64,000 nucleotides of DNA from Candidatus Enterousia sp. (GCA_045635825.1 JAZTWM010000015.1:6786-70785); one strand, 5' to 3'; positions 7,368 through 64,000 are shown, counted from the first letter of the stretch. Numbers and translations: made by a program. Notes: generated from the letters alone by a model not told the origin.

Positions 7368-7370
7368 TCC

Positions 7371-7395: not shown

Positions 7396-7458
7396 AGGAT
7401 GTCAAAAAGGATTGTATGGATAAAGAAACCCGCCCACATGGGGCGGTTTCAAATTTTA

Positions 7459-8072: not shown

Positions 8073-8119
8073 TCCTTATTTTATGTCACAATAAACTTTA
8101 ATGAATAAATCCCCATAAA

Positions 8120-8506
8120 TCAATATGGTTTTTGGGATAAGACTTTTGATACAATTAAGTCAGCTGGTAATTGTGGGTGTGCCGGCAGGTCTGATACTAG
8201 CACCCAGTGCATATCATCGTGGACATGCAATTGGATTTCGCCGAGATAGGATACGATTTCGTATGTGTGCAGTTCGATTACCTTACCTGAATCTGTTGTA
8301 TGTTTTGCGATTGTAATAAGGTCGCCAACTTGCGCATCTATCCCCAATTCTTCGGTCAGTTCACGTTTCAGGCATGTTGGTCCATCTTCACCATCTTCAA
8401 ATTTACCGCCGGGATATTCCCATTCGCCAGCCAATGGCTGGTCAGCCGCCCGTCGCATCAGCAGAACTTTATCCCCATCTCTAAAAATCGCAGCAGTTAC
8501 TTTCAT
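8120..8506 (-). CDS. NUDIX hydrolase
   Basis: Canonical Nudix box G-x5-E-x7-R-E-U-x-E-E-x-G-U: GKFEDGEDGPTCLKRELTEELGI. Confidence 0.85.
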   Translation of the reverse strand: MKVTAAIFRDGDKVLLMRRAADQPLAGEWEYPGGKFEDGEDGPTCLKRELTEELGIDAQVGDLITIAKHTTDSGKVIELHTYEIVSYLGEIQLHVHDDMHWVLVSDLPAHPQLPADLIVSKVLSQKPY

Positions 8507-8514
8507 TTGTTTCC

Positions 8515-9567: not shown

Positions 9568-9983
9568 GTTTTTACACCTTTTTACACAATTTTACACGAT
9601 TCTGCACGAAAAGCAACGATTTTTTACATTTTTCTGGGCGGATTTAAAGCGACACTTTAGATTATCGAAAATTTGCCCACTAACCCATCCCAAAATATCC
9701 CGGCGGTTACTTTCATTTATTCAATTTATCGCTAATTATATCGCTAGTTTTTTTGTCGAAACTAGCGATATATGATTATCGCCCGGATTTTATCAAATGT
9801 ACACATTTTGTTTTCCGACTCACCCAGCAACAAAAAAACGTGTAAAAACAAACCTTTTCCAAGTGCCAAGCAATAAATTTCTGTCATAATAGAAATTTTC
9901 TGCAGTTTTACATAAAATTTCTATTAAGGCAGTTTTCTGCAGTTCCCCAGACGTATATTCATGCGTAATATCAGACCATATTT
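9568..9983. promoter_or_regulatory. Island control region with several repeat motifs
   Basis: TTTTACAC x2; inverted repeat TATATCGCTAGTTT/AAACTAGCGATATA; TTCTGCAGTT x2 spaced about 34 bp apart. AT-rich. Lies between the fic operon and int. Confidence 0.4.
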
Positions 9984-11466: not shown

Positions 11467-11655
11467 GTTTAGTGGCGAAGTCATGCGGGGCGGACAGTTT
11501 TTATTTTATTCGGGGCGTGCAAACGCAACCCATTTCTGCCCCATGACTCCAAAACACCAACAACTGTGATGCAAAGTGTGATGCGATGTGGTATCTGTGT
11601 AAAAAATAACTTGATTTATTTTTGTGTCATTTTAACCTGAAAAAAGGTACGTAAA

Positions 11656-13290
11656 ATGTTGATTGTAAAAAATCTTGAGAAGTCTTTTGATAGTAATATA
11701 ATTTTCAAAAACTTGAATTTTTCTGTTCAGGATGGTGAAAAAGTCGCTGTTGTCGGTTTAAATGGTGCCGGAAAATCGACTTTGTTTAGAATTTTATTAA
11801 ATCAAATTGATTACGACAGTGGTGAATTTTATATGGGTAAAAATCCACGAGTTGGCTGGATGCCACAAACCATTGACGAATTGAATCTGCCGGATGATGT
11901 TATTGTTTATGATTTCTTGCGTTCAGGGCGACCTTTGGCCGAAATAGAACGACGTATGACGGAAATATACACCAAAATGGCCGAAGGTGATGATTCAGAA
12001 GAATTGTTACAGCAATTGGGGGTGTGTCAATCTGAATTTGAATATTGGGATGGATATACTGCGGAATCTGAATTAGAAACTATGATAGACCAGATGGGCA
12101 TAGATCGTCAAAATCTGAGCAAAAAACTGGGTGAATTGTCCGGTGGTCAAAAATCCAAGATTTCATTTATCCGAACATTGTATTCTCGCCCTGGCGTTTT
12201 GTTTTTAGACGAGCCGACAAACCACCTGGATGCCGCCAGTCGAGAATGGATGACGGATTATTTGGTTGCAACAGATGCGTCTGTGATATTCATATCGCAT
12301 GATGAAGAGTTTATAAACAAGGTCGCGGATAAGACTCTGTATTTAGATGCTATGATGCATACCGGGACATTATATGGGTTTGGGTACAAACGTTTTTTAA
12401 GAACCCTGGCAGAAACAAACGAGAGTTTAGAACGGCAATTACAAAAGCAAATGCGTGAAATAAATCGTATCCAGGCATTTGTTGACAGTCAACGTGGCAA
12501 ATCGGGTAAGGCAAAAAGACAGGCGCAAAGTCGTGAAAAAATGTTAGATAAAATGCGTCAAAATCTGGTGGTTGCCCCAACGGAAAAGAAAGATATTGAT
12601 TTGGAGCTAAGCCCAAATCGTGAAGCGGATATTTTGCCAATCACGGTGGAAAATTTAAACTTTTCATACGTTGCCAATAAGAAAGTAATTAAAAATCTTA
12701 CATTTTCATTAAATCGGGGCGAGAAATTTTTAATTGTTGGGGAAAATGGCGCAGGTAAATCGACCTTGTTAAAATTATTATACAAAATATTAAAACCTGA
12801 TTCTGGTATTGTTCGTATTGGTAAAAAAACCGACTTGGGATACTATGCCCAGGAATACGAGACATTAAACCCAAATATAACAATTCTGGAAAACGCATCA
12901 AGTGTAACAAATATCAGTACATCAAAACTGCGTTCTGTTTTAAATCACTTTAATTTTGTTGGGGACAAGGTAAAACAAAGCGTAAAAACAATGTCGCCAG
13001 GCGAACGCAGCCGTTTAGAACTGGCCAAATTATGTCTTGGTGGTGCCAATGTTTTATTATTAGACGAACCAACAAATCATCTGGATGTGGCAACCAAGAA
13101 AACCATCGCACAAAGTTTTTCTGAATACGGCGGCACCCTAATTATCGTTAGTCATGACCTAGAATTCTTGAAACATGTTGGCATAGATAGAATGTTAATG
13201 TTGCCTAGCGGACGATTACAGTTTTTTGACGAAAATATTGTTCGCCGATACATGGAACAAGAGAAACAAAAAAGAATATTAACAAAATAA
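11656..13290 (+). CDS. ABC-F family ATPase (two tandem ABC domains, no TM domain)
   Basis: Two Walker A motifs (GLNGAGKST, GENGAGKST). Two signature/Walker B pairs (LSGGQKSK...LFLDEPTNHLD; LSPGERSR...LLLDEPTNHLD). Confidence 0.85.
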   Translation: MLIVKNLEKSFDSNIIFKNLNFSVQDGEKVAVVGLNGAGKSTLFRILLNQIDYDSGEFYMGKNPRVGWMPQTIDELNLPDDVIVYDFLRSGRPLAEIERRMTEIYTKMAEGDDSEELLQQLGVCQSEFEYWDGYTAESELETMIDQMGIDRQNLSKKLGELSGGQKSKISFIRTLYSRPGVLFLDEPTNHLDAASREWMTDYLVATDASVIFISHDEEFINKVADKTLYLDAMMHTGTLYGFGYKRFLRTLAETNESLERQLQKQMREINRIQAFVDSQRGKSGKAKRQAQSREKMLDKMRQNLVVAPTEKKDIDLELSPNREADILPITVENLNFSYVANKKVIKNLTFSLNRGEKFLIVGENGAGKSTLLKLLYKILKPDSGIVRIGKKTDLGYYAQEYETLNPNITILENASSVTNISTSKLRSVLNHFNFVGDKVKQSVKTMSPGERSRLELAKLCLGGANVLLLDEPTNHLDVATKKTIAQSFSEYGGTLIIVSHDLEFLKHVGIDRMLMLPSGRLQFFDENIVRRYMEQEKQKRILTK

Positions 13291-13304
13291 GAATGATAAA
13301 AAAA

Positions 13305-13844
13305 TCATTCTGCCACCTTCGCAAACATTTTCATATCACGCGGTTCGCCACGCAGGATGAAATATTTGCGCAATACACCTTCGCATTCATAACCACAGCG
13401 CATCGCCACCGCCGCAGAACGAATATTTTGTTTGTCCAGGGTCAATTGCACGCGTTGCAAACCCATATTAGCAAAACCCATTTCGGTCAGTTTATTCAAG
13501 GCGCGTGTCATTATGCCACGGCCATTAAAGCCATGCGCCAGCCAATAACTGATTTCGCCCATATTGTCGTCTGTATCCACAAACCCAATCTTGCCGACAA
13601 TATCATCGTCCACCATGATAAAGTAAGCGCACTTATCATCGCCAAACGATTTTTCAATATTCGCCAATGTTTTATCGGTTGTGGTATAAGCGTCAACCCA
13701 TTCCAAGAATTCGCCCAGGAATTCACGATTGGCATTTATAACCGACAGCAAGCGTTCCGCATTTTCCACCGTTGGTTCTAACTTCTCCAACCGGAAATCA
13801 CCCATATCAATACTACGTGAAAATTTATTTGTTAGATTTTCCAT
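13305..13844 (-). CDS. GNAT N-acetyltransferase (RimJ/RimL-like)
   Basis: GNAT core ...YWLAHGFNGRGIMTRALNKL... Confidence 0.7.
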   Translation of the reverse strand: MENLTNKFSRSIDMGDFRLEKLEPTVENAERLLSVINANREFLGEFLEWVDAYTTTDKTLANIEKSFGDDKCAYFIMVDDDIVGKIGFVDTDDNMGEISYWLAHGFNGRGIMTRALNKLTEMGFANMGLQRVQLTLDKQNIRSAAVAMRCGYECEGVLRKYFILRGEPRDMKMFAKVAE

Positions 13845-14178
13845 TATATTGCCTTTAATTTATTTCATGTATTTTATCATATTTTTTATCAAAATGCTAT
13901 GTGAGGCGATGTGTGATGCAGGCAGACAAATCAACTGTCTGAAACAGTTGGAAATCTTGGACTTTGGACTCGTCTTGGCATCCCGACAATGAACATCCGT
14001 CATTTTTCTTGTGAATCGCAGCAGTTACTTTCATAACAGCATAAGATTAAACAAATTGTGCAAATATTTCAATGAAATTGACTTGAATTTTACCGATATT
14101 TACCTATATCAATAGTGTCCGTTGGGGACAGAGTTTTAATTTCCAATTTTTATCAAACAACAGCCAAAGGGGGCAAGC

Positions 14179-14736
14179 ATGACACAAGTGTCAAGTGCGG
14201 TTGATGTGCTGTGGGATTTGTATATGGCGCACCCAGAAAAACTGAGCAAGGTTGACTGGGAATACCTGATACGAAACAAAGCAGGCGCATTAGTACGCGA
14301 AATACTGATTAAAAATATGCAAGAGCATATAAAGCCGACACAGGATAAATATGAACAACAATGGCGGACGGCCAACCAAGCCATTTTGCAACGCATTGGG
14401 CAATGTATTGGGGACGGTGGGCCGGTCGCATACATGGATCTGATTGCGGCAATTGATGCGGGGGTGGATATAAATATCCTGAAATACCTGATATCAAAGT
14501 GCGACAACATAAATGGGTGTGATGAAAATGGGCAGACAGCCCTGCATCACTGTGTGTTGAATTATGTCAGTTTGGATTTAGTGAACGAACTGTTTATCGC
14601 AGGAATAAATAGTGCGGCACTGGACAACAAAGGTCTGGATGCGCGTGATTATTTAGATAAAGACATCTGGGGCGATGATTACGGGACGGCACGCATGATG
14701 TTGCGTCCCACTTGGACATATTTCTATGACGAATAA
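14179..14736 (+). CDS. Ankyrin-repeat protein
   Basis: Repeats of the type ENGQTALHHCVLNY...LVNELFIAGINSAALDNKGLDARDYL. Confidence 0.7.
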   Translation: MTQVSSAVDVLWDLYMAHPEKLSKVDWEYLIRNKAGALVREILIKNMQEHIKPTQDKYEQQWRTANQAILQRIGQCIGDGGPVAYMDLIAAIDAGVDINILKYLISKCDNINGCDENGQTALHHCVLNYVSLDLVNELFIAGINSAALDNKGLDARDYLDKDIWGDDYGTARMMLRPTWTYFYDE

Positions 14737-14746
14737 GGGGGGGGGG
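14737..14746 (+). repeat. G10 homopolymeric tract
   Basis: Ten consecutive G immediately after the ankyrin stop codon and 6 nt before the ATG at 14753. Seen directly. Confidence 0.9.
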
Positions 14747-14752
14747 TACAAA

Positions 14753-14974
14753 ATGACACCAAAAGCACAAGAATACTTATCAGTGGCGACATGCTTGGCA
14801 AGCACCAGTTTAACCGAGGCAGAACGCAGTAAAACCCATGATAAATTACGCACCATCAAGCAATCGTTTGATGTGGCAGATTGGGATGCACTGATTACAT
14901 GGTCAAACAGCCCAACCATACGTGCAGAATTACATAAGCAGAAAATTGCAGACGCGACAGTATTTGCCCGATAA
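14753..14974 (+). CDS. Small hypothetical protein (73 aa), start context includes the G-tract
   Basis: ORF 14726-14974. The in-frame upstream ATG at 14726 spans the G-tract. The ATG at 14753 has the G-run as a Shine-Dalgarno sequence. Confidence 0.35.
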   Translation: MTPKAQEYLSVATCLASTSLTEAERSKTHDKLRTIKQSFDVADWDALITWSNSPTIRAELHKQKIADATVFAR

Positions 14975-15000
14975 TAAAAATCCCCCAAAGTTGATAGGTT

Positions 15001-15906
15001 TTATTCAAACATTTCAAGTGGGATGTCATATTCATGACAGAATTCGTAAAAGAACTCTAGAAATGCCTGAACCTTGGGACTTTTAATTGTTAGGGGGTTT
15101 CCAATGCCTGTTAAGATATATTCATAGTCAAATTCTATGTTTGGAACCTCTATCAATTTTTCATTACGCATTGTACACCAATCAGGCATCAAGGAAATAC
15201 CTGCCCCGTCACACACCAATTGATACAGAATTGATGCAGAATCAGCCGTCACATTCAATTTTTTTGCACGCTTTAAAATGAAATTACATTCGGGCAGTTG
15301 TAAAAACTTTTGACGGATACACAAGTCATAATTTTCCAGCATATCATCCATATCACGTGGAACCCCACGTTTTTGTAAATATTCTGGTGTTGTATAGAAC
15401 TTTGTCTTGGTCTTGAATTTGAACAAAGGGGTTGTCCCAGGTATTTTTTGTAATGACCGAATGTCAATAATTGAAATATCTGGGTTGGTCATGTTCATGT
15501 GTCTGTTGGTCAAAATGTCCAGACGGATTTTGGGATGCTTGGCATATAATTTTGATAATTCAATGAATAGACGACTGCCGGCAAAACCTTCTTCGGTCCA
15601 GATAGAAATGTGACCGGTCAATTCATCGGGCCCAGTAATATTATGCAAAATATTTTCCAACGCATTTGATATGCTTTCAATATCTGCATATAACTGACGG
15701 GTGGTATTGGTGGGGACACTGCCAGAAGAACTGCGTATCAGCAGACGGGTTTTGAAGCGTGCCTCTAAATCCGCAATCAATTTTGACATATTTGAATGCT
15801 TAATCCCATTGCGTTCGGCGGCAGCATGAATTTGACCAAGATCTATTACCTCTTTCAACGCCAACAATTCACGTAGAAATGCAATTTTAGTTTTAATTGT
15901 TGGCAT
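15001..15906 (-). CDS. LysR-family transcriptional regulator
   Basis: N-terminal HTH (LRELLALKEVIDLGQIHAAAERNGIKHSNMSKLIADLE) plus a co-inducer-binding-sized C-terminus. Divergent from a downstream regulator/exporter pair. Confidence 0.8.
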   Translation of the reverse strand: MPTIKTKIAFLRELLALKEVIDLGQIHAAAERNGIKHSNMSKLIADLEARFKTRLLIRSSSGSVPTNTTRQLYADIESISNALENILHNITGPDELTGHISIWTEEGFAGSRLFIELSKLYAKHPKIRLDILTNRHMNMTNPDISIIDIRSLQKIPGTTPLFKFKTKTKFYTTPEYLQKRGVPRDMDDMLENYDLCIRQKFLQLPECNFILKRAKKLNVTADSASILYQLVCDGAGISLMPDWCTMRNEKLIEVPNIEFDYEYILTGIGNPLTIKSPKVQAFLEFFYEFCHEYDIPLEMFE

Positions 15907-16194
15907 ATATACCCCTTTGAATTAAATATTGAATCTATTTTTATAGTGTGTTTTAGGAATATATACCATTAAACAACAAATAGCCAGTGGAATATATTCT
16001 TTTCCGCATAAGAATAAAACCTTATTTTAAGACCGAAAATTAGAAAAAATGCCCAGAAATATAAATATTTTCATGTTCCATGCCCCTTTTTATACATTAT
16101 ATCTCATAAAAACAGTATGAAAGAGATTAGGAAAACGTGTTTTATAATCATCGTGTGTTCAAAGCAACAAACAGTTAAAAAAAAGGAGACAACT

Positions 16195-19194: not shown

Positions 19195-20295
19195 TTAACG
19201 AGATTTAGGCGAAGAGGCAGATATTACCACATCTTTACGATTACGACACATATCAATATACGTATTGTTTGCCGCCTTGAGAGCGGTATCTGTCCATTCA
19301 CGTTCACGTTGAACATCTGGCGTGGCAAGTTTGGCTGTATATGTATTGTCAATAATATGGTTGTGTAATTGGAACAACTTGACCGACATATCACAGGCAT
19401 CTTGTCCGGTTGTGATGCGTGGCGTAACATTCAACTGGGCATTCGCATCCAGATATGCAGTTGGACGACCACCCTTTTGATAAAAGATTCCGCCAACACC
19501 ATTTTCGGCATCCAGACTGTGATCCTGAACATATTTCACATTGTATGGTTCTGGTGACGGCAGGTTAAAACCACGATACATCGGTTGATATATTACTGTT
19601 TGTGTTTTGGTTGGTTCAAAAGAACGAACCACCGGTGTATGTAAGCGACCATTGCCACGAATTACTGTGCCTGGGCGTATATCTGTCAAATCCATAAATA
19701 TCATTTTATCACAATATGGGAATCCGACACGTCGTGCAACCAGACCATATTCAGATGCACTGGTAAATGTATAATCATTAACAATCAGTTGAAATACCGA
19801 TGGCATATGACGAAAAGTTTTCATACCAGGGCCAATGAAAGACAATCTGATTTTTTCATCTTCTTTGGGTTCGGTACGCTCGATAATTAACATTCTATCT
19901 TTTAGACCAACACGAGAAGCAATATGCATATGCGGATCATAAACATCAACTTGCTTGGATAAATATAGGTCGCCCAGCCAAAGACCGACACGCACTTTGT
20001 CAAACCAATCCAGCAATAACGATATTTCTGGGGCAGTCAGGCTGGCACCATCCATAATCTTGGTTATGATATCTTTGCATTGAGCCTCCATCAGACTGTA
20101 CCGGCTGTTACATTCTTCGCAGGCGGGGAACTTTAATGCCTGAAATGCAATACTGTCACGACCACTGGGCAAAATATTACCCATAAAACAGGGGCGTGAT
20201 TTTTTACCGGTCATCGCCATTAACCATTGTGGCAAAACGTGTTCCGCATTCTTGCCCTGGGGTTTATTTCCACAAAAAACACAAAATTGTGACAT
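19195..20295 (-). CDS. Protein with N-terminal HNH-like Zn-finger nuclease motif plus ~280-aa unknown domain
   Basis: C-x2-C (CVFCG) ... EHVLPQWL ... N ... C-x2-C-N (ACEECN) arrangement typical of HNH/His-Me finger nucleases. No other recognisable motif. Confidence 0.5.
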   Translation of the reverse strand: MSQFCVFCGNKPQGKNAEHVLPQWLMAMTGKKSRPCFMGNILPSGRDSIAFQALKFPACEECNSRYSLMEAQCKDIITKIMDGASLTAPEISLLLDWFDKVRVGLWLGDLYLSKQVDVYDPHMHIASRVGLKDRMLIIERTEPKEDEKIRLSFIGPGMKTFRHMPSVFQLIVNDYTFTSASEYGLVARRVGFPYCDKMIFMDLTDIRPGTVIRGNGRLHTPVVRSFEPTKTQTVIYQPMYRGFNLPSPEPYNVKYVQDHSLDAENGVGGIFYQKGGRPTAYLDANAQLNVTPRITTGQDACDMSVKLFQLHNHIIDNTYTAKLATPDVQREREWTDTALKAANNTYIDMCRNRKDVVISASSPKSR

Positions 20296-25533: not shown

Positions 25534-27057
25534 ATGTCAAAAAGCATGTATGATATTATCAAAAAGCAAAATGGCGAACACTTTGCCAAGGCCATTCGTT
25601 GTTATGACAATGGCATTTTTGACATTCCAAATCTGGATCGAATTGTAAAGTATGCTGGTCGTGACGCAGAACCAGTTATGAAATACTTGATATCGCTGAA
25701 AAATATTGAGATTACCAGACAAAGCAAACACCACGAACCGTTAACCCTGTTGGCACAGGCTGGATATACCGCATACGTTGCAGACACATTAGAAAAACAA
25801 AACGCCATCGCCAGATATTTTGCACCGAACGAACAACTGTGCACGTTCAAGGATAAAGACAGATTCCAAAGATACTATATTATAAATGCAGTTCGGCATG
25901 ATGCAGACAAATTAAGACGTGATGACTTTACACACCCAGAACGTGAAGACGCATATGGAACATCCGTTATTTCAATTCAAGTATTAAAAGAAGGCGGATT
26001 TATTAGCATAAAGAACAGATACAATCACGCCGTAGAATCATGTGACAATACCTTCAATTCAAATCCCGACAATATCATTATGGGGCTGTCCGATGCGATA
26101 CAGAATTACTTTAATGTAGACTTTGTCACAACGCATTGTGATTTGCCACGTGGATACAGATTGGTTGGCGAACACATTTGCAAATATAACCAAGAAATCA
26201 ACAACGTCTATGTTGGTGAAAACTTTTATATCGCAGATGGCATAATACATGACATAAATGGCCAAAATAAAATTATGCTGGGTGGTGGGCTAATTTTTGA
26301 TATCCCCAGCAAAACCGTTCATAATATCGCACACCCTTTTTACAATTGGAATTGTATTGATAATATATTTCGCAACAAGGCATTACAACAAATAAAAGAT
26401 AAAAAGACGGGCGTACGCACATTGACTGCAGATGGCGTGCCGGTTATGCGAATTAACGCAGGACAGATGACTTATATAAACCTGGCGGATGCACCAAGCG
26501 TTCTGTTGACGGATATGAATAAACTGTGTGGGGAATTAGATTTGTCCAAGGCATTTGAGGTTGATTTAGAAAATATTAACACAGAAAATATTACACGCAT
26601 AAAGTTTAACCCAATGGTGCGTTCAGTACAGATAAAACAAACTGCCCTGCCCCGGGATAGTTATAATTTTAGTAATGCGAACACTTTGATATTGAACAAT
26701 GCGGATTTTTCAAATGCAACAGGCTTTAAAACCAAACGCGATGCAGGACACGTTGTAATCAGCAATGTAAAGTTCCCACACCTGGACTTTGATTTCAGCC
26801 AGGTCGAGATTTTAGGTCTGCCGAACTGTGATTTGCGTGGTGTTAAATCCATTAAATTCAATCCAAATGGATACAGAATAAATCTGCGCGGTGCAAAGTT
26901 ACCAGCACAAAAGTTTAATTTAGAACATGTTGATGATTTAATTTTAGATAACACAGATACAAGCCTGGTTCATGGTATGAAAATAAATCCCAATCGCGTA
27001 ACAGGTATCACACCAGCAAACGCACTAAGATTGATAGAACAATATAAGCAAAGATAA
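25534..27057 (+). CDS. Hypothetical 507-aa protein with C-terminal pentapeptide-like repeats
   Basis: C-terminal third has runs such as NNADFSNATGF..ISNVKFPHLDFDFSQVEIL..CDLRGVKSIKF..INLRGAKL. Followed by hairpin AGACCACCAAAATGGTGGTCT. Confidence 0.5.
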   Translation: MSKSMYDIIKKQNGEHFAKAIRCYDNGIFDIPNLDRIVKYAGRDAEPVMKYLISLKNIEITRQSKHHEPLTLLAQAGYTAYVADTLEKQNAIARYFAPNEQLCTFKDKDRFQRYYIINAVRHDADKLRRDDFTHPEREDAYGTSVISIQVLKEGGFISIKNRYNHAVESCDNTFNSNPDNIIMGLSDAIQNYFNVDFVTTHCDLPRGYRLVGEHICKYNQEINNVYVGENFYIADGIIHDINGQNKIMLGGGLIFDIPSKTVHNIAHPFYNWNCIDNIFRNKALQQIKDKKTGVRTLTADGVPVMRINAGQMTYINLADAPSVLLTDMNKLCGELDLSKAFEVDLENINTENITRIKFNPMVRSVQIKQTALPRDSYNFSNANTLILNNADFSNATGFKTKRDAGHVVISNVKFPHLDFDFSQVEILGLPNCDLRGVKSIKFNPNGYRINLRGAKLPAQKFNLEHVDDLILDNTDTSLVHGMKINPNRVTGITPANALRLIEQYKQR

Positions 27058-32769: not shown

Positions 32770-32870
32770 TTGATAGTCATTCTACAACCTGATTTTGTTC
32801 ATGCAAGCACTAAATGAAAATACTTTTATATAAGCCAAAAATATGTTATAATGTGTCAGACAAAGTTAAA

Positions 32871-34388
32871 ATGAAGGCAGGGATTATTTCATTTTTATCG
32901 GTGATTGCTGCACCAATCGTTGCGCTTTCTGCGAACGAAGGGGTGCCGTCTTATTATCAAAACGCACCATCACAAAATGCAAATCAATCCGCATATCAGC
33001 AGTATGCCAGACAGGGGTACACAAAATATGTGGGGCAATCTGGTTCTAAGCAGGTGGTTGGATCACGCACATATTCATACCAGGTGCCAAAGCCACAGCC
33101 ATTGCCAACAATTATGGGCACAATGACCCCAAATGGGATTGCATTACCCGCCGAGGCAGAACCTGCAACATACATGTATGCGGGATATTCACGCAGATTT
33201 TCAGACTTTGAATTCAAGACGGGCGTAAACTCTATTCTGGAATGGGACGACATGGTCTGGAATGAAATTCGTGTTGGTGCCCGCCATAATTTTAGTTTAC
33301 GTGATTTCGATTTGTCCGTTTATGGTGAATATGCATATGGCAAAATGTCACATGGGGGTCTGTCCATGGACTATGACCTGGAACCATTCGATTCATCCGA
33401 CCCAACATATGGTATATTTACAATTTCAACAGGCGAACAATCTGGTCGTAGCAACAATTTCCGTTTTGGTATTTCTGCACGTCATATTTGGGATATAGGC
33501 GGTTGGAAATTATCACCAACATTTGGATATGAAATCTTTAAGCACAACCTGCAAATGTCAGATCATTACTATCCAAATCCAGGGGTGTATTTGCCACTGA
33601 TGACAGATCATGGCGAATATGTATATGGTAATGAATTGGGCGAATATTTTGCAGTTGCCCCAGGGATGGAGGCACCAGAAGACTGGTACCAGGTTTGCAT
33701 GTCACCAGAAGACATAAAGATTGTCACGAACACAGAAACAGGATATAACGGTGCCTTCCCTATTTTGGGCGATTCTTTGATGACGGGCGACTATGAAATC
33801 ACAATGGGCGAGATTCCATGGGGTGTTGGACCAGGCGAATGTGTTATCATTGGCGGTGACGGTCCTGTTATTGTTGGGGGTACAACACACATTTATAACA
33901 CAACATGGTCAGGTTTTTACGTTGGTCTGGAAATTGAAAAACAGATGACCCTGAAAGATAAGTTACGCATGTACGTCCAGGTTGGAATGCCCAAATATTC
34001 ATCCGAAGGTATTTGGCCAAATCGTACAGACTGGCAACAAAATCCAAGTTTCTTGGACGAAGGCAGTAATGGGGCGTTCTCGTACACAGCCGAGATGGAA
34101 TATAACTATAAAATGTCAGACAGATTACAATTGTCATTAAAGATTGATACAAACATGTTCCATGTTGGAAACATTCCGGGTGAATTATACATCGCTGAAT
34201 ATACCGACTATGTAATTGATGAAAACGGTCAATATGTTATGGAAGAGATGTATGACGAGTTTGGCAATGTTTATTATGTACCACTGCTGGAAACAGTGCC
34301 AGCACACACAGAACATGTTAGCGATTCTTTGAAACGTGCAACATGGCAGTCTTTTGGTTTGCACCTGGGATTCAAATACGCATTTTAA
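32871..34388 (+). CDS. Outer-membrane beta-barrel protein, unknown function
   Basis: Signal peptide MKAGIISFLSVIAAPIVALSA. C-terminus ...GFKYAF. Start chosen downstream of a TATAAT-like box inside the listed ORF. Confidence 0.5.
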   Translation: MKAGIISFLSVIAAPIVALSANEGVPSYYQNAPSQNANQSAYQQYARQGYTKYVGQSGSKQVVGSRTYSYQVPKPQPLPTIMGTMTPNGIALPAEAEPATYMYAGYSRRFSDFEFKTGVNSILEWDDMVWNEIRVGARHNFSLRDFDLSVYGEYAYGKMSHGGLSMDYDLEPFDSSDPTYGIFTISTGEQSGRSNNFRFGISARHIWDIGGWKLSPTFGYEIFKHNLQMSDHYYPNPGVYLPLMTDHGEYVYGNELGEYFAVAPGMEAPEDWYQVCMSPEDIKIVTNTETGYNGAFPILGDSLMTGDYEITMGEIPWGVGPGECVIIGGDGPVIVGGTTHIYNTTWSGFYVGLEIEKQMTLKDKLRMYVQVGMPKYSSEGIWPNRTDWQQNPSFLDEGSNGAFSYTAEMEYNYKMSDRLQLSLKIDTNMFHVGNIPGELYIAEYTDYVIDENGQYVMEEMYDEFGNVYYVPLLETVPAHTEHVSDSLKRATWQSFGLHLGFKYAF

Positions 34389-34418: not shown

Positions 34419-35537
34419 ATGTCAAAATTGGCACGTTGGATTTTTGCCAGTATAGTTTGTATCCCTGTCTATGCACACGCAGATCGTGGCGTGTTTGATA
34501 TGAACAGATGGGAAAATATGCAAAATACAATTCGCGAACGTGCCACAGCAGCAAATATTTCACAGACCGTTATAGATAACACCCTGCGAAATATGGCATT
34601 GATTCCTTCTATTATAAAAAGCGATGCAAATCAATCTGAGTTCAAGTTGACACTGGATGAATATCTGGATAAAACGGTCAACCAAACACGCATTACACAG
34701 GGTAAAAAAATGCGTATGCGGTACCCAACACTATTGTCACGTGTCGAAAAAAATTATGGCATTCCACCACATGTTATGTTGGCATTTTGGGGGATGGAAT
34801 CAAACTATGGCGCAGTCAAGGCCAGACATCAATTGACACACGCATTCTTTACACTGATGTACGAAGGACGTCGCGAAACATTTTTTGGCAACCAACTGTT
34901 AGCCCTGATGAAAATCGCCGACAAAAACAAGTTAGATATCAATTCTATCCATGGCTCATGGGCAGGTGCAATGGGGCACTTTCAATTTATTCCAACAACG
35001 TTGGCACAGTATGGTGCAGACGGCAACGGCGACAAAAGAATAGATATTATAAACAATATCACAGATGCCATGTTTAGTGCTGGAAACTATCTAAATAAAC
35101 TGGGCTGGAATAAAAATGAAAAAATTGTACGCCAGGTTATATTACCCGGGGACTTTGATATTACAATGCTGGACGGAAAGACGAAACTGACCCTGCCACA
35201 GTGGGCGGCACTGGGGGTCACAAATCCAGATGGTACACCAATACCACAAAGGGAAATAGAGGCAGGATTGGTTGCAGATGTTGCGTCAATTAACGCAGAA
35301 CGGGAAGCCATACGTCAAGCAACGATTGAAGCAGCCCATCAGGCGGCAATGGCCGAGTCTGCAACATATGCAGATCCAACGCTTCAAGAACCATCATACG
35401 AAGCAGATACAGACATTGCACCATTACCAGTTATTACTGCATATTTGACATATCCAAACTTTTATAGAATCAAAAAGTGGAATAATTCAAATTGGTATGC
35501 GATCGCTATTGCAGAACTGGCCGACCAATTGCACTAG
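34419..35537 (+). CDS. mltB: Lytic murein transglycosylase (MltB/SLT_2-type)
   Basis: Signal peptide. LAFWGMESNYG catalytic-region motif. Confidence 0.75.
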   Translation: MSKLARWIFASIVCIPVYAHADRGVFDMNRWENMQNTIRERATAANISQTVIDNTLRNMALIPSIIKSDANQSEFKLTLDEYLDKTVNQTRITQGKKMRMRYPTLLSRVEKNYGIPPHVMLAFWGMESNYGAVKARHQLTHAFFTLMYEGRRETFFGNQLLALMKIADKNKLDINSIHGSWAGAMGHFQFIPTTLAQYGADGNGDKRIDIINNITDAMFSAGNYLNKLGWNKNEKIVRQVILPGDFDITMLDGKTKLTLPQWAALGVTNPDGTPIPQREIEAGLVADVASINAEREAIRQATIEAAHQAAMAESATYADPTLQEPSYEADTDIAPLPVITAYLTYPNFYRIKKWNNSNWYAIAIAELADQLH

Positions 35538-43114: not shown

Positions 43115-45130
43115 TTAATGACTGCCTTTACCTAGATCACGACGCAAACGGTGCAAAGCTTGGTTGATATTTTGCAGTTCTGCAATCGCATTTTCACGTT
43201 CTTGCATTTTCATCAACACAACACGCAATTGTTCTGTCAACCCCAGCATTTTTTCAATTTCTGTTTCGTTGGACAGACGCGTTATCAGCGATGTACGCTT
43301 ATCCGCAAGTTCTTTGTACTGAACTTCGTATTTATGTGCCAAGGCATAAACATCCCCCCAAGTTGGGTTAGCAGAATCATCATGTGCATTTGGCACAGCG
43401 GTTGTACGAGCCTTGTTTTCAACGGTCTTTTTGCCAGACTGGGACATAATCTTTTTGTTTGGCAACACACGATCTGTCACAGGCCGCATTATACGTGGAC
43501 GACGTGGACGATGTGGACGTGCGGTCTGTACCGGTGCAACAGGCGAAGCGGTCGCTTCTGCAGACGATTGTGTTATCACAGGCACACATTCTGTCACAGT
43601 CGGCTGTTGCGTGGTTGCATTTTCTAACACATTGCTGGTGACATCTGTATTATCTGGGATATTTGTTGACACAGGCTGGGATAAATCAGGTTTTGCATTT
43701 ACTGGTTTTGTTGCGACAGATGTGTCATCAGCATCCGTACCATCCACATCAGGTCTGGTATGTGGGGCGGATAATTTTTCAATCAAATCAGGAACCGACA
43801 ACAGTTCATGATAATTATAACCTGCGGGGTTAAATTTGGTGGCACGTATACATTCCTTGTATTCAATTTGCTGTTTACCCTTGGCATGGCCTGAAAAAAC
43901 ATTTTCGGCAACAAAGCATTTTTCTGTACCGGAAACCGCCCATACAATACGTGGTCCATTGTTTAGCGATCCCAGACTTTGTGCCAGACAATCCTGCGAT
44001 TTAAATTCAACAGACGATTCTTTTTGCAATTTACCATCTGCATCAACATAATAAACCGCATTACCTTCTGTTTTACCGGGTATAATATTTATTGAGTTTA
44101 TTGCATTCAATACCCTAAGCATTGCCTGCTTATCCGTACCGCATAATTGTTGAACCTTTTTCCAGGCAGACTTACTAAAATACTTGTCTATCTTGACACG
44201 TCTAATGCCAGAGCGTGATCCGATTTCAAAACCTTTCTTTTTTGTTGACGCCTGAGCAGGTTGAGTCGCAGGCATAGTTTTTTTCTGCTTTGGTTGAGAC
44301 TGAGGACACGCAACAGACTTCACTGCAGATATAGACTGTGCTATATAATCTGCAACACGTGGTACATCATCACGATGCACACATATAATTTTAACACCAT
44401 CTGTTTGACGCAATTTTTCTGCGACCCTTAATTTTAAATTAACACGTGCAGAACGGGCCTGCTGAATCAAGCGATTCAAATCTTTATCAGGCAACTGGGC
44501 AATAAGCGGTGATGAATTACGACAAAAATCTGCAACTTCTTCGGCGGAGTACCATTGTTCGGTTTTGATTTCTGGCAAATCAATTGTTTTAGCAGATTTT
44601 GGCGTTGTAACCTGTGCCACTGGTACAGCGGCATTAATTTCAGCAACCCAATCTTTTAATGTTGTCTTGCCATCCGTTACAATTACATTTGGATATAGGT
44701 TCATAAACTGGCGTGCAATATATAATGCACCGTCTTTATCAGCCTTGATATTATTAAACAGGGCATGACGAATGGTCACAATGCCGCATTCAGGTGGTAA
44801 TTTCCCCACCAAAACACCAAGATCTTGAATTGCATAACTGCAATCAAGGGCTGTAAACTTTCCAGGCAAAACGGTATCCGGGGTGATTTGATATTTACCG
44901 CAATTCAGGGCCCCCTGAATATCAACGTATTGCATATAAGGAAAAAATGCATTCTTTGCATTACCCAGAGATACATCCTGATTAATTACAAGACGATTAT
45001 CCGCAGATAATTTATCATATGGTAAATCAAATATATCGTACCAGCCCTGAACAGAATCCTGGTCTTTGCCCAACGTTGCTAAAACACTTAATGTCTTTTG
45101 TGCCATAATATCCCCTAATTTTTCACCCAT
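43115..45130 (-). CDS. Large orphan protein with disordered central region and C-terminal coiled coil
   Basis: 671-aa ORF. Central Pro/Thr/Ser/Asp-rich segment and RPHRPRRPRIMRP. C-terminal heptad-like ELQNINQALHRLRRDL. Own hairpin terminator at 43088-43112. Confidence 0.5.
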   Translation of the reverse strand: MGEKLGDIMAQKTLSVLATLGKDQDSVQGWYDIFDLPYDKLSADNRLVINQDVSLGNAKNAFFPYMQYVDIQGALNCGKYQITPDTVLPGKFTALDCSYAIQDLGVLVGKLPPECGIVTIRHALFNNIKADKDGALYIARQFMNLYPNVIVTDGKTTLKDWVAEINAAVPVAQVTTPKSAKTIDLPEIKTEQWYSAEEVADFCRNSSPLIAQLPDKDLNRLIQQARSARVNLKLRVAEKLRQTDGVKIICVHRDDVPRVADYIAQSISAVKSVACPQSQPKQKKTMPATQPAQASTKKKGFEIGSRSGIRRVKIDKYFSKSAWKKVQQLCGTDKQAMLRVLNAINSINIIPGKTEGNAVYYVDADGKLQKESSVEFKSQDCLAQSLGSLNNGPRIVWAVSGTEKCFVAENVFSGHAKGKQQIEYKECIRATKFNPAGYNYHELLSVPDLIEKLSAPHTRPDVDGTDADDTSVATKPVNAKPDLSQPVSTNIPDNTDVTSNVLENATTQQPTVTECVPVITQSSAEATASPVAPVQTARPHRPRRPRIMRPVTDRVLPNKKIMSQSGKKTVENKARTTAVPNAHDDSANPTWGDVYALAHKYEVQYKELADKRTSLITRLSNETEIEKMLGLTEQLRVVLMKMQERENAIAELQNINQALHRLRRDLGKGSH

Positions 45131-60714: not shown

Positions 60715-60894
60715 TTAGAATATCAAACCCACGATTGCATTCAGCACACTATCCGTTACAAAAAAGAACAATGCCGCAAGTGCCGAAAACACCAAAATCG
60801 TTATTGTTGCACGAACAACGCTATCACGTGAAGGCCACACAATCTTGAACCATTCACCGCGAACCGACTTAAAAAAATCCAGTATTTTTTTCAT
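60715..60894 (-). CDS. secE: Preprotein translocase subunit SecE (single-TM, 59 aa)
   Basis: Hand translation MKKILDFFKSVRGEWFKIVWPSRDSVVRATITILVFSALAALFFFVTDSVLNAIVGLIF. Sits between tRNA-Trp and nusG. Confidence 0.75.
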   Translation of the reverse strand: MKKILDFFKSVRGEWFKIVWPSRDSVVRATITILVFSALAALFFFVTDSVLNAIVGLIF

Positions 60895-60936
60895 AAAAAA
60901 CTGCCTAAGTTACTGTTTGTTCACCTTGACTAAATA

Positions 60937-61010
60937 TGGCAGGGGCAGAAGGAATCGAACCCTCATCCGCGGTTTTGGAGACCGATATTCTACCGTTGAA
61001 CTATGCCCCT
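60937..61010 (-). tRNA. tRNA-Trp (anticodon CCA)
   Basis: Reverse complement AGGGGCATAGTTCAACGGTAGAATATCGGTCTCCAAAACCGCGGATGAGGGTTCGATTCCTTCTGCCCCTGCCA. One mismatch at the base of the anticodon stem. Confidence 0.8.
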
Positions 61011-61203
61011 GAAATGACAATATTTTTTACCCCTTGGTAAATCGAACGCCACCACATAGTCTGCAACAGGATAGCATACGATTACAAAAAATCAAGTGAA
61101 AATATTATAATACTTTTATCATTTTTGCACAAGGCTTTTTTTCATTTTACCACCCCAGAACAATCACTTTTTTCAATTTTCCCCTTGCATAAAGACCAAG
61201 TTT

Positions 61204-61914
61204 TTGTCTACAATCATCATAATTAAGGGGGAGATTTTTGTGCAAAACCGCGTAGAACCGCCAGTTTTAATATCAAGACTGATGGCCTTTGTGTTAACAA
61301 TGGCAGTGGTTGTGTTGGTCACTTTGGGCTATACCTTATATAATATGTTCCCACTTAATCGACCACAGGTATTCTTTTTAACAACAACTGTACGCGCCGA
61401 TCAAGATATACACTTGACCGAAATGCAACCAAACAGTGCTAATTTAGATGCATATAAAAAAGCATTCGTTCGTGAATACATCCGTCACAGAAACGAGGTT
61501 TACACGAACGCAAGCGTTATGCATAACAAATGGAACAATATTGACGGTGCAGTAAGAACCATGTCAACCGAGCAGGTTTATTCTGATTTTACAAATACAG
61601 CAATGTTTGTTGCAATTATGGGTGGCATGCCAGATTTTGACTTTTCTTGCCCGGTCGTATTTCATAAAGATCCACTGTATATGGGTAGCGATAACATGTA
61701 TCGTGTCAATTTTCGATATTTCTGTGCAGATAGTACTGGACGAACATGGCCAAAAGATTATACAATCGGTATTAGGTTAGAGAGTGATGGCGAAAGCAAA
61801 ATACGTTGGACAGACAGAATTGCAAATCCATTGGGGTTACGTGTGGCAGAATATAAGATAATAGAAGGCGATGGCGATCCACTGGATACAGGCTTTCGTG
61901 AAAGTGAAGAATAA
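61204..61914 (+). CDS. virB8: Type IV secretion VirB8-like protein (start may be an internal GTG/ATG)
   Basis: Short N-tail, single TM (LMAFVLTMAVVVLVTLGYTLY), about 190-aa periplasmic domain of VirB8 size. Immediately followed by a VirB9-like gene. Confidence 0.55.
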   Translation: MSTIIIIKGEIFVQNRVEPPVLISRLMAFVLTMAVVVLVTLGYTLYNMFPLNRPQVFFLTTTVRADQDIHLTEMQPNSANLDAYKKAFVREYIRHRNEVYTNASVMHNKWNNIDGAVRTMSTEQVYSDFTNTAMFVAIMGGMPDFDFSCPVVFHKDPLYMGSDNMYRVNFRYFCADSTGRTWPKDYTIGIRLESDGESKIRWTDRIANPLGLRVAEYKIIEGDGDPLDTGFRESEE

Positions 61915-61920
61915 TAAAAA

Positions 61921-63465
61921 ATGGGAAGGATTGGTATGACACTTGCAAAATTGGTTAAGTTTAATGTTTGTGCAGTATGTTTGGCGGGGTTGCTGACATT
62001 GCCGGCATATGCAGACTATGGCATACAGGCGGCATGGGACAATCCAACCGCAAACATGGCCGCAGGCAGTATTAAGCCAGGATATGCACAATTGGCATGG
62101 TCACCAGGTTCGGTATTGCCAATCAAATTACGTAACGGTATGGTCACAATGGTAACACTGCCAAACGGTGAACAAATCGCGGATGCAATTGTTGGTGACA
62201 CAGGGCAATTCGACATTGACACAACCCAAGGCGATCGCACAATGTTCATATCACCCGCCGGCAGCAATCAGGGTTCTGATACAAATATGATTGTTACAGG
62301 AAAATCTGGAAATAAATATATTTTCTATTTACGTGCGGAACCATCTAATTCCAGCGAAATCACATATTCACAGGTTGATATCATTTTGGACGGCAATGGC
62401 GTATTACCAATAGCAGGTGGCGGTGCAGTTGCATCAGGTGGTGCAAAATCAATATTCCAAAAGTCCACACCAAATACATCTGTTGCGGGCGGTGGTGCAA
62501 ATGATGAAGATTGGGGTTGGATTAAATCTATGAAAATCGATCCATCTGAGTTCCGCTTTGATTTGGATATATTCGTACCAAATCCCGACGATTATGTTAT
62601 TGCACCAGAACGTGTGTGGCGTGACAGAATCTTTACATATATTGACTTTGGCGACAAAGTTATATCTATGACACAACGCCCAGTTGTTTCATTGTTAGTA
62701 GAAGGTGGCGAGTCACCAGTTGGTTTTCGCACAGATGGTGAAGACGGTCGCTTGCTAATCGTGGAAGCAGTTGGTGATATGGTTTTGCGTAGCGGTCAGC
62801 GAATTGTATGTATCAAAAAGCGTGAAAAACCATTCTTGATTGCGGACACCGCATCTGTTATGGCATTGGCAGAGGCAAATGTTGCACAGAGTATGTTGTC
62901 CGGGCAATCACTGAATAATATCGCATATACAGACAGTATGGCAGCGATGAGCATGGGAACAGGATATACCGGCACACCAATGTATGTTGGCAATCAACAA
63001 GCCGTTAACCAGATGACAGGCGCAGGATATTATATGCCAGCAGGCTTTACCGCACCACAGGCAATGCCATCATCTGGCAGTGTTGTTAATATGCTACCCC
63101 AGCAACGTAATACCGCAGGTGCATATTTGCCACAGACAAATATTCCACTGATTTCCAGCAACCAGACAGGGGTTGCAGTTGAACTGAAATCTGATACATC
63201 TGTTAAAGCATTGGACGAATATTGGTCAATGTTATTGGCAAAGTTCAGTGGCGAAGATGGCCAGGGTCTGCTGACTAAATACAAAGATATGGTATTTTAT
63301 TCTGTAGACGAACAAGGCGTGGGCGATTTGGGTGCAGATTCCAAGACCGCACGTATGTATCGCCTGAGAATTGGGCCAATGGCCGACATTGATACAGCAC
63401 AGACACTGTGTGACCAAATGCTGAAATTCAGCGGAACCAGTTGCAGTGTTGTTCGTATGCAATAA
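61921..63465 (+). CDS. virB9: Type IV secretion VirB9-like protein with low-complexity linker and C-terminal SPOR-like domain
   Basis: Signal peptide. VirB9/CagX-type N-domain (PGSVLPIKLRNGMVTMVTLPNGEQIADAIVGD...TNMIVTGKSGNKYIFYLRA). Q/G/M/A-rich linker. C-terminal ...ARMYRLRIGPMADIDTAQTLCDQMLKF (SPOR-like). Confidence 0.6.
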   Translation: MGRIGMTLAKLVKFNVCAVCLAGLLTLPAYADYGIQAAWDNPTANMAAGSIKPGYAQLAWSPGSVLPIKLRNGMVTMVTLPNGEQIADAIVGDTGQFDIDTTQGDRTMFISPAGSNQGSDTNMIVTGKSGNKYIFYLRAEPSNSSEITYSQVDIILDGNGVLPIAGGGAVASGGAKSIFQKSTPNTSVAGGGANDEDWGWIKSMKIDPSEFRFDLDIFVPNPDDYVIAPERVWRDRIFTYIDFGDKVISMTQRPVVSLLVEGGESPVGFRTDGEDGRLLIVEAVGDMVLRSGQRIVCIKKREKPFLIADTASVMALAEANVAQSMLSGQSLNNIAYTDSMAAMSMGTGYTGTPMYVGNQQAVNQMTGAGYYMPAGFTAPQAMPSSGSVVNMLPQQRNTAGAYLPQTNIPLISSNQTGVAVELKSDTSVKALDEYWSMLLAKFSGEDGQGLLTKYKDMVFYSVDEQGVGDLGADSKTARMYRLRIGPMADIDTAQTLCDQMLKFSGTSCSVVRMQ

Positions 63466-63480
63466 GTTTTGGCAAGCGGG

Positions 63481-64000
63481 TACAGGGGATGAGTAAATTA
63501 AGACAACAAATTTCTGATATACGTAAGAACACACCTAAGCGGGTACAGTGGCTGTTGATGGCGGTTGCATTTATTGTGGTGATTATTTTGTTGACCCTGC
63601 TGATGGGTGGTGATAATAAGACACCAAATGCGGTACCTGTGGCAAAGATTGCACCAGAATTAAAAATTGATCCAGATATGATTAACTGGGCAGATGTTAA
63701 GGTTGGCGAAAAAAAGACACAAACAATCAAAATATCTGCAACAGCACCAGTTAAGATTTTTGACATGCGTTGGCATGCAGAAGATGTTGGTGGACTGACT
63801 GTTAATCAAACATGTACGAAGATGGGGCAGATTAATGCAACATTGGGATGTGCAGTATTTATAACATACGCACCATCATCTGCGATGGCCACAGAAAATA
63901 TTCCTGTGTTCATTGATTGGCATGACGCAGAAGAAACCCAAAAAATGAACAAGACTGCAAAAATTGTTTTAACACTTGGGGCGGTGGCACCAGAAATACC
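63481..64000 (+). CDS. Membrane-anchored hypothetical protein, possibly a T4SS component; 3' end outside window
   Basis: Frame open to the window end. MSKLRQQISDIRKNTPKRVQWLLMAVAFIVVIILLTLL is an N-in single TM anchor. No Pro-rich region seen. Confidence 0.35.

Follow-up and report, generated by a model that had tools for sequence, protein, structure and literature searches.

A VirB9 homologue with a tethered SPOR-like domain in a chromosomal type IV secretion locus of Candidatus Enterousia

What is a VirB9 protein, a subunit of type IV secretion systems (T4SSs), doing with a C-terminal domain that resembles the SPOR domains of division proteins and lytic enzymes? The question is raised by the end of a 64,000-nucleotide stretch of DNA from Candidatus Enterousia sp. 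(GCA_045635825.1, JAZTWM010000015.1:6786-70785; here called the window, with positions counted from its first letter), where positions 61,204 to 64,000 hold a virB8-virB9-virB10 cluster. Canonical VirB9, TraO and TrwF proteins (Agrobacterium VirB, pKM101, R388, Xanthomonas 6gyb) are about 250-300 amino acids long and end after a second β-sandwich. The VirB9 of the window shares with them the signal peptide, the two sandwiches, the CagX match and the virB8 and virB10 neighbours, but adds about 210 residues, which comprise a tether and a SPOR-like domain. On balance, we favour the view that virB8-virB9-virB10 form the envelope scaffold of a vertically inherited P-type T4SS, whose SPOR-like tail would hold the core complex on the peptidoglycan sacculus.

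The protein has the marks of the VirB9 family. These are a match to CagX (Pfam PF03524, 80.4 bits against a cut-off of 34.2, residues 57-300), the layout of a secreted protein with two sandwiches, and virB8 and virB10 as neighbours, a setting that the window shares with about 80 related loci. Residue numbers follow the 514-residue open reading frame (ORF) unless stated; those of the full-length AlphaFold2 model, which was built with 50 homologues, start from Met6 and are five less. The sole match of VirB9 among PDB sequences was Xanthomonas VirB9 (6gyb, over residues 56-141). An earlier note on this DNA, made from the sequence alone, had claimed a VirB9/CagX signature in the N-terminal half, and the CagX score, the 6gyb match and the two modelled sandwiches bear it out. 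Against the NCBIfam equivalog TIGR02781, VirB9 scored 56.8 bits (cut-off 217.7; best stretch residues 58-149). VirB8 likewise matched its Pfam family (PF04335, 36.8 bits against 23.2, residues 25-219) and scored 20.8 bits against its NCBIfam equivalog, for which the cut-off is 188. As both lie far below the equivalog cut-offs, they are distant family members rather than Ti-plasmid equivalogs. The identities of VirB8, VirB9 and VirB10 are near certain.

The linker between the two sandwiches (residues 165-198) varies even between close relatives (identity 0.46-0.62 within the Enterousia clade), and the C-terminal sandwich (residues 210-300) is 98-100% identical across 120 homologues of the clade. 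In solved T4SSs, this sandwich and VirB10 form the outer layer of the core complex. The tether that follows is rich in Ala (15%), Met (10%) and Gly (10%), also contains Thr, Ser and Gln, and has four charged residues in 105. Its first 35 residues (to residue 340) are near-invariant in the clade and include a short predicted helix at model residues 306-316. Tether length is 111-119 residues within the Enterousia clade and 42-226 in other clades. The peptides that the earlier note quoted for a low-complexity linker and for the C-terminus are both present in the translation, and that linker was modelled as disordered by AlphaFold2.

The C-terminal domain showed much of what is expected for a SPOR domain. 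Pfam SPOR (PF05036) scored 20.8 bits in the whole protein (cut-off 21, residues 473-512) and 23.9-24.5 bits on the isolated C-terminus, so that the domain searches suggested by the earlier note placed VirB8 and CagX above their Pfam cut-offs and SPOR above its own in the isolated domain. The same model matched 15 of 22 diverse tails of the family (best E 1.8e-6), and no other family matched. The structure prediction that the note had also suggested, run on the last 103 residues with 22 diverse homologues, gave a predicted local distance difference test score (pLDDT) of 88 and the order strand-helix-(short helix)-strand-strand-helix-strand. The top three matches of this model in a Foldseek search of the PDB were the RlpA SPOR domain (6i09 and 6i05, probability 1.0, target-normalised TM-score 0.61-0.63) and the DedD SPOR domain (6ztg, 0.99). 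No ring-building motif or secretin N-domain was found among the top 50 matches. Direct alignment showed the tail to be collinear with the SPOR domains of E. coli FtsN, RlpA, DamX and DedD, with which it shares the order of secondary-structure elements, a strand-1 Ser and the R-x-x-x-G-P strand (RLRIGP in the window). The tail thus very probably adopts a SPOR-type fold, as judged from the models.

Which of the residues that matter in SPOR domains are kept? In the alignment, FtsN Q251, S254 and R285 correspond to Glu421, Ser424 and Arg481. FtsN Q251, like RlpA Q270, contacts the lactyl carboxylate of N-acetylmuramic acid (MurNAc), R285 makes an electrostatic contact, and a role for S254 is likewise described (PMC6895207). 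Over the 275 tails that we collected, 222 have Ser or Thr at the Ser424 position, and 205 have Arg and 65 His at the Arg481 position. The equivalents of FtsN S254 and R285, two sheet residues on which septal localisation depends, are therefore retained, but the Gln of strand 1 is not. The equivalents of FtsN W283 and I313 are not conserved. Two cysteines, Cys497 (275 of 275 tails) and Cys508 (274 of 275), sit in helix 2 and strand 4, where they are placed differently from the FtsN disulfide. Fusion to a secretion subunit, an acidic residue in place of Gln and this near-invariant Cys pair set the tail apart from the SPOR domains of division proteins and lytic enzymes. The systematic change from Gln to Glu defines a SPOR subfamily of its own, and the VirB9 tail is a distinct, Glu-type member of the SPOR domains.

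Several of these results weigh against a tail that binds the wall as other SPOR domains do. The Pfam match is borderline, and only model positions 36-76 of 76, the second half, align. The Foldseek E-values were about 6e-3, and after the top three, generic ferredoxin-like folds followed at similar E-values. A profile of the tail family found no SPOR entry among PDB sequences, only chance coiled-coil matches, and the family hidden Markov model gave no meaningful score to the SPOR domains of E. coli FtsN, RlpA, DamX and DedD. Above all, the position of FtsN Gln251 is Glu in 261 of the 275 tails, Asp in nine and Gln in one (P0136). A DD-carboxypeptidase (Peptidase_S11) encoded about 9 kb off in the orthologous locus L002 (20346-21527, minus strand) has a canonical SPOR tail, in which strand 1 (GVQFGAF) contains the Gln. 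Because Gln is replaced by Glu or Asp in nearly all the VirB9 tails, their ligand may differ from denuded glycan. The SPOR-like C-terminus of the earlier note therefore stands as to fold, isolated-domain score and RlpA and DedD matches, but is atypical. Of the peptidoglycan anchor that it proposed, the SPOR-type fold was recovered, whereas binding can only be extrapolated, the MurNAc-contacting Gln being replaced in 270 of 275 tails. From the sequence, we consider it an even question whether the tail binds the cell wall. That the tail directs the machine to the septum or poles, by analogy with other SPOR proteins, is a tentative idea and the less likely outcome.

The alternative that survives best gives the tail the same SPOR- or ferredoxin-like fold but another partner: a wall component that is modified or carries positive charge, VirB8, VirB10, or the tail itself in an extra periplasmic ring, comparable to those of the ring-building motifs in other secretion systems. 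This alternative fits either view of how complete the T4SS is. It would account for the acidic residue that systematically replaces Gln, unlike in the canonical SPOR domain of the same genomes, for the Cys pair, and for a family profile that misses canonical SPOR sequences and a Foldseek list that turns generic beyond its third entry. It would not account for SPOR being the only Pfam family matched (15 of 22 members), nor for three top structural matches that are all SPOR domains (0.99-1.0) with neither ring-building nor secretin N-domains in the top 50. The tail has also kept the RxxxGP strand and, for the FtsN binding residues, the Ser and Arg/His equivalents, and P0136 retains the canonical Gln. 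We regard a partner of this kind as unlikely, though it deserves to be kept in view.

To what extent is this architecture a peculiarity of one locus? A word-indexed protein search returned 1,520 related clusters, of which the best 120 were 76-100% identical to the window protein and all 492-524 residues long. A scan with one genome per species, using a 13-sequence alignment, confirmed 565 relatives. The best 80 of these came from Candidatus Enterousia or from alphaproteobacterial metagenome-assembled genomes (human, ruminant, horse, mouse and chicken gut), and each matched the VirB9 query essentially end to end; one of the 80 loci is in a closed genome of 958,618 bp (OZ007020.1). Within the clade, VirB9 residues 201-340 are 96-100% identical and the SPOR-like domain is 74-92% identical. 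The tail is under strong purifying selection. The earlier note had allowed that the extension might be a frameshift or fusion artefact if homologues lacked it and no SPOR match was found; the extension is conserved in the homologues and the SPOR match is present. We dropped the artefact, as the best 120 homologues and best 80 loci are all full length.

The architecture also extends well beyond Enterousia. An exhaustive search of representatives gave 479 clusters at 50% identity, many of them 430-620 residues long, with short VirB9 representatives also among the matches. The motif of the tail can still be made out in proteins with about 26% overall identity. In a second clade, also very large and made up of uncultured Alphaproteobacteria, VirB9 is built alike (1,632 clusters at E <= 1e-10; the best 120 are 484-640 residues long). 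Among cultured bacteria, a tether and SPOR-like tail were found in the plasmid VirB9 proteins of Sphingosinicella sp. BN140058 (plasmid p1, WP_129392748.1, 430 residues) and Erythrobacter aureus (WP_115418090.1, 432 residues), whose tails both scored 43-44 bits (E ~1e-15) against a profile from which their nearest relative was left out. Their VirB9 domains are 38-39% identical to those of the window protein, but their tethers are shorter and strand 1 has Asp for Glu. Public annotation calls both proteins 'TrbG/VirB9 family' only. In a large lineage of alphaproteobacterial T4SSs, which takes in conjugation-type plasmid clusters of cultured Sphingomonadales, the tailed protein is the standard form of VirB9. 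The fusion is thus absent from textbooks, as the earlier note held, but is no oddity of this locus, being found in two clades and on plasmids.

In both plasmids the T4SS cluster is complete (VirB2, VirB3, VirB4, VirB5, VirB6, a VirB7-like lipoprotein, VirB8, VirB9, VirB10, VirB11 and VirD4) and is followed by a topoisomerase gene; the Sphingosinicella cluster also has a MobA/MobL relaxase. In contrast, the cluster of the window is chromosomal and consists of virB8, virB9 and virB10 only. More distant relatives of the window cluster have progressively fuller sets of T4SS genes. The nearest outgroups (L088 and L089) have only B8-B9-B10 or B9-B10. Locus L085 has a lipoprotein, B8, B9, a B10 of 1,507 residues (11563-16086) and B11. 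L087 has VirB4, VirB5, a 560-residue protein, a 67-residue lipoprotein, B8, B9, B10 and B11. L090 (323-19893) has seven unknown ORFs, B8, a 58-residue ORF, a second B8, B9, a B10 of 2,354 residues and B11. VirB11 directly follows VirB10 in L085, L087, L090, L091 and L097. A VirB7-like lipoprotein with an (S/T)PCAC-type motif lies just 5' of virB8 in L085 (9028-9219), L087 (6253-6456) and L097 (7907-8113), and two genes 5' of virB8 in L086 (4026-4190). The same VirB9 tail therefore belongs both to full VirB2-to-VirD4 plasmid clusters and to chromosomal clusters with VirB4, VirB5 and VirB11. Three details of these relatives are recorded here for themselves. The VirB4 of L087 (1-3597) has LAGLIDADG/homing-endonuclease matches in mid-protein, which suggests an intein-like insertion. 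The giant VirB10 proteins of L090 and L085 have weak to faint matches to Bflower-type repeats. The duplicated VirB8 and upstream ORFs of L090 are reminiscent of the gene proliferation in the rvh system of Rickettsiales.

The partners of VirB9 have the layouts of their families. VirB8 has a short cytoplasmic N-terminus, one hydrophobic segment (LMAFVLTMAVVVLVTLGYTLY), which from its sequence we take as a transmembrane helix, and a periplasmic VirB8 domain. The third gene is a bona fide VirB10. Its fragment in the window consists of a cytoplasmic tail, one hydrophobic segment (VQWLLMAVAFIVVIILLTLLMGG), also taken as a transmembrane helix, and an immunoglobulin (Ig)-like periplasmic domain, for which there was a weak choice-of-anchor-D match (25.1 bits against a cut-off of 45). 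All 170 residues are 52% identical to, and collinear with, the N-terminus of a 789-residue protein in the orthologous locus L002, which scored 66.1 bits against TrbI (Pfam PF03743, cut-off 35) and gave weak PDB matches to CagY and ComB10 (2bhv), CagY scoring equally well. The earlier note had placed the start of this ORF at 63481, which is out of frame, and had found it to lack the Pro-rich region expected of VirB10. The apparent lack arises because the window cuts virB10 at codon 170. In the orthologues (L002 11558-13927; L005 11560-13971), it is here that a Pro/Lys/Glu-rich spacer begins, followed by the TrbI barrel and a Cys-rich tail; in L005, the closest species-level relative, the protein is 17% Pro from about residue 165.

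Across the Enterousia clade, VirB10 is 604-858 residues long (median 803); the Ig-like domain directly follows the transmembrane helix, and behind the barrel come about 200 residues of conserved, Cys-rich tail. It is intact in 73 genomes. In these, the barrel and the stretch at the position of the antenna are 75-96% identical, which suggests that an outer-membrane pore is maintained. The cytoplasmic N-tail is better conserved than the adjacent periplasmic domain (0.62 versus 0.37-0.46), which hints at an inner-membrane or cytoplasmic partner. The Cys-rich tail, with about 12 Cys, ends in NGCC.GE.YTDMGEQGFNCCP..GGDCFPP(L/I)I and is 76-83% identical across the 73 genomes.

Is the secretion system complete? 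Here lies a further difficulty for the scaffold reading. We searched the window and all loci by tblastn with VirB4, B5, B6, B7, B11 and D4 from L085, L086, L087, L090 and L091, and found no homologue of VirB2, VirB3, VirB4, VirB5, VirB6, VirB7, VirB11 or VirD4, either across the 64 kb of the window or, in about 80 related genomes, within some 10 kb of the cluster, where the loci covered extend to about 21 kb. Pfam searches of 30 further ORFs of the window returned no T4SS family, and the 229-bp gap 5' of virB8 (61011-61239) contains no ORF for a VirB7-like lipoprotein. The earlier note had proposed to look beyond the contig for virB10, virB11 and virD4: virB10 could be completed in the orthologues, but virB11 and virD4 were not found nearby. 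As no ATPase or other such component was found near the cluster, a complete machine is an assumption of our reading. In the window, the search covered about 8% of one genome. To our knowledge, a VirB4-family ATPase is the one universal T4SS component, and scattered T4SS genes occur in Rickettsiales. We think it rather probable that the ATPases are present elsewhere in the genome.

The Enterousia (order Rs-D84, gut Alphaproteobacteria) have genomes of 0.75-1.0 Mb, are without the tricarboxylic acid cycle, respiration, flagella and standard nutrient transporters, and are unable to make amino acids, nucleotides and fatty acids (PMC12306168). Such a background gives some appeal to a core-only remnant, in which ATPases, pilin and VirB6 were lost and B8-B9-B10 were kept, not as an ATP-driven secretion machine but as a wall-tethered outer-membrane conduit or a scaffold for adhesion that might serve, for instance, passive exchange with a partner cell. 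Only virB8-virB9-virB10 are found at the locus in about 80 genomes, VirB11 being absent there; the VirB7-like lipoprotein of the relatives is missing too, the nearest outgroups are just as sparse, and the missing transporters (PMC12306168) would leave room for a conduit. However, the well-conserved cytoplasmic tail of VirB10 suggests an inner partner, and VirB8, an assembly factor, has no obvious role in a core-only pore. We know of no T4SS core complex that works without VirB4, T4SS genes are scattered in other reduced genomes such as those of Rickettsiales, and only the small part of one genome given above was inspected. A core-only remnant is thus improbable in our estimate. Lower still we rate the idea that Enterousia stripped its T4SS to an ATPase-free, wall-tethered VirB8-VirB9-VirB10 core, a conduit or attachment device through which metabolites or DNA would be drawn from partner cells, with the Glu-type tail fixing its site via a wall feature other than denuded glycan.

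Could the cluster be a DNA-uptake machine like ComB, rather than a T4SS for effectors or conjugation? The order B8-B9-B10 is that of comB8-comB9-comB10 in Helicobacter pylori, likewise a three-gene operon, and VirB10 matches the ComB10 structure 2bhv. Some homologues carry the JGI label 'ComB9 competence protein'. In one distant relative (L085), ComEC is encoded about 1.7 kb downstream of VirB11, and the import of DNA would profit bacteria that are unable to make nucleotides (PMC12306168). But the ComB labels come from automatic annotation, CagY does no worse than ComB10 as a match of VirB10, and ComEC was seen near VirB11 only once, beyond an oppositely oriented tRNA-synthetase gene. The closest relatives that can be characterised are plasmid clusters with a coupling protein, with the MobA/MobL relaxase in Sphingosinicella. 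ComB also depends on ComB4, for which no gene was found here, ComB9 is without a SPOR-like tail, and there was no evidence of competence genes at the window locus. We consider a ComB-like machine very improbable.

The coordinates of the cluster and of the parts of VirB9 are given in Table 1. The T4SS genes lie beside tRNA-Trp and secE, as the earlier note had claimed, with coordinates and families verified from the ORF list, ARAGORN and Pfam. The secE and tRNA-Trp genes (60715-61010, minus strand) are the left boundary of the cluster, which recurs in related loci, and are outside the system. In about 80 species the order is fixed: nusG (minus), secE and tRNA-Trp; virB8, virB9, virB10, orf113 and orf77; then yidC, lspA, a Na+/H+ exchanger gene, ksgA and recR (all minus). 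The two small ORFs, of 113 and 77 residues, have no Pfam match and lie on the same strand 3' of virB10 in most Enterousia loci (L002 14204-14954); they may be part of the T4SS operon.

Table 1. Coordinates of the virB8-virB9-virB10 cluster, its left boundary and the parts of VirB9 in the window
Feature	Position	Strand	Basis and remarks
secE	60715-60894	-	ORF list; SecE PF00584 on the identical 59-aa product in locus L001
tRNA-Trp	60937-61010	-	ARAGORN; 5' end towards the T4SS genes
virB8	61240-61914	+	224 aa from GTG 61240; mechanical ORF start TTG 61204
virB9 with C-terminal SPOR-like domain	61936-63465	+	509 aa from ATG 61936; mechanical ORF start ATG 61921
Sec signal peptide (aa 6-31)	61936-62013	+	read from sequence; N-terminal helix in the AlphaFold2 model; probable cleavage after AYA
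VirB9 N-terminal β-sandwich (aa 50-156)	62068-62388	+	AlphaFold2 pLDDT 84-92; 6gyb match; TIGR02781 stretch
Gly/Ala-rich inter-domain linker (aa 165-198)	62413-62514	+	AlphaFold2 pLDDT <50
VirB9 C-terminal β-sandwich (aa 210-300)	62548-62820	+	AlphaFold2 pLDDT 75-89; within Pfam CagX envelope
Tether (aa 306-410, 105 aa), predicted disordered	62836-63150	+	AlphaFold2 pLDDT <50
SPOR-like domain (aa 417-514)	63169-63462	+	β-α-β-β-α-β order; Pfam, AlphaFold2, Foldseek
virB10, first 170 codons, runs past window end	63489-64000	+	start ATG 63489

The mechanical ORF list gives a first frame of 236 residues (61204-61914) and a second of 514 (61921-63465), both on the plus strand and 6 nt apart, which is how the earlier note described virB8 and virB9. 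These ORFs are present, but the true starts are likely GTG 61240, after AAGGGGGAG, for virB8 and ATG 61936, after the ribosome-binding site GGAAGGA, for virB9; both ribosome-binding sites are purine-rich, and gene callers agree on the two starts in identical DNA. An exact database look-up matched the 509-residue form of VirB9 and not the 514-residue form, because gene callers start at Met6. A candidate promoter 5' of virB8 (TTGCAT-17-TACAAT) was dropped, as its first hexamer matches at three of six positions. Promoter-like sites upstream of virB8 are in no excess (13 versus 8.5 +/- 3 in shuffled sequence).

The T4SS locus is chromosomal and vertically inherited, not an island. The G+C content of the cluster is 0.42, compared to 0.375-0.449 (mostly 0.39-0.44) in the rest of the window, and neither an integrase nor a relaxase gene was found within about 50 kb on its upstream side or about 8 kb on its downstream side. 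An island or integrative and conjugative element at tRNA-Trp was dropped on account of this ordinary G+C content, the tRNA 5' end facing the cluster, the lack of an integrase within about 50 kb and the fixed synteny. The unusual architecture and the adjacent tRNA gene might still bring to mind an artefact (frameshift, fusion or mis-assembly) or a recently integrated element, but with more than 1,500 clusters from independent assemblies, 80 of the best 80 loci full length, a tail under purifying selection, identical synteny across the clade, and a cluster that abuts the 5' end of the tRNA gene where integrases usually target the 3' end, we give this practically no weight.

How would the scaffold that we favour work? 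VirB8 would act as a bitopic inner-membrane assembly factor, and VirB9 and VirB10 would build the outer-membrane core complex, with the antenna-position stretch of VirB10 forming the outer-membrane pore. Each outer-layer domain of VirB9 would then drop its SPOR-like domain into the periplasm on the tether of about 105 residues, a length that would plausibly bring the domain as far as the peptidoglycan. As every VirB9 subunit has a tail of its own, a core complex may carry a crown of wall-binding modules, whose most likely job would be to hold or position the complex on the sacculus. If the tail has kept the canonical SPOR preference, it would bind amidase-processed glycan at the septum, and the machines could be inherited at the new poles. 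If the Glu alters specificity, the ligand would be another feature of the wall. VirB4, VirB11 and possibly VirD4 would be encoded elsewhere in the genome.

Wall-binding modules are found on other envelope machines: DotK of Dot/Icm, VirB12 of Brucella, TagL of the type VI secretion system, and MotB. These are OmpA-like domains on separate lipoproteins or inner-membrane proteins, whereas the module described here is of the SPOR type and fused to the core subunit itself via a long tether. The system also resembles rvh of Rickettsiales, in a comparison made without a phylogeny, in being a chromosomal, vertically inherited VirB-type system of reduced alphaproteobacterial genomes with split loci. 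However, rvh keeps B8-B9-B10-B11-D4 together, while B11 and D4 are not adjacent in the window cluster, and we know of no SPOR tail on RvhB9.

Other parts of the window gave observations of their own. A tRNA-Thr gene (5498-5573, plus strand) is followed by genes for a DinB/IMS-family polymerase (6105-7367, minus), a Fic-domain protein (8515-9567, minus) and a tyrosine integrase with an Arm-DNA-binding domain (9984-11183, minus), the sole integrase of the window; the region as a whole (5498-11183) is possibly an integrated element of small size. In some bacteria, Fic proteins serve as T4SS effectors. A 185-residue protein (14179-14736, plus) has a weak ankyrin-repeat match (26.6 bits against a cut-off of 27.3), proteins with such repeats being typical among the T4SS effectors of host-associated Alphaproteobacteria. 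A homologue of the Pom family (Protochlamydia outer-membrane protein; 32814-34388, plus) precedes an SLT_2 lytic transglycosylase (34419-35537, plus), which could clear a way through the wall for envelope machines, the cluster having no VirB1 gene. Four sizeable ORFs without a Pfam match, of 671 (43115-45130, minus), 507 (25534-27057, plus), 349 (1753-2802, minus) and 366 residues (19195-20295, minus), are notable for a genome of about 0.9 Mb.

The tailed VirB9 is a widespread variant of a well-known system for which we found no published description. Our literature search returned no paper that combines 'VirB9' and 'SPOR domain' and none linking a T4SS with a SPOR domain, co-mentions being judged mainly by title and abstract. 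Structural work on T4SSs has centred on a few model systems, whose VirB9 stops at the outer-layer domain. With a tethered module on every VirB9 subunit, the machine may have its own means of anchoring or positioning the core complex on the wall and, given that sites of division are marked by SPOR domains, such a module would also offer T4SSs a simple way to the poles. The plasmid systems, being in cultured hosts, make the function of the tail directly testable. The lifestyle of Rs-D84 was proposed to be obligately symbiotic or parasitic, with metabolites obtained from other cells, possibly via intercellular connections, in a genome survey that leaves secretion systems, including T4SSs, unmentioned (PMC12306168). 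The T4SS core, strictly conserved in this prevalent and uncultured gut lineage, is a concrete candidate for the machinery behind its partner-dependent life.

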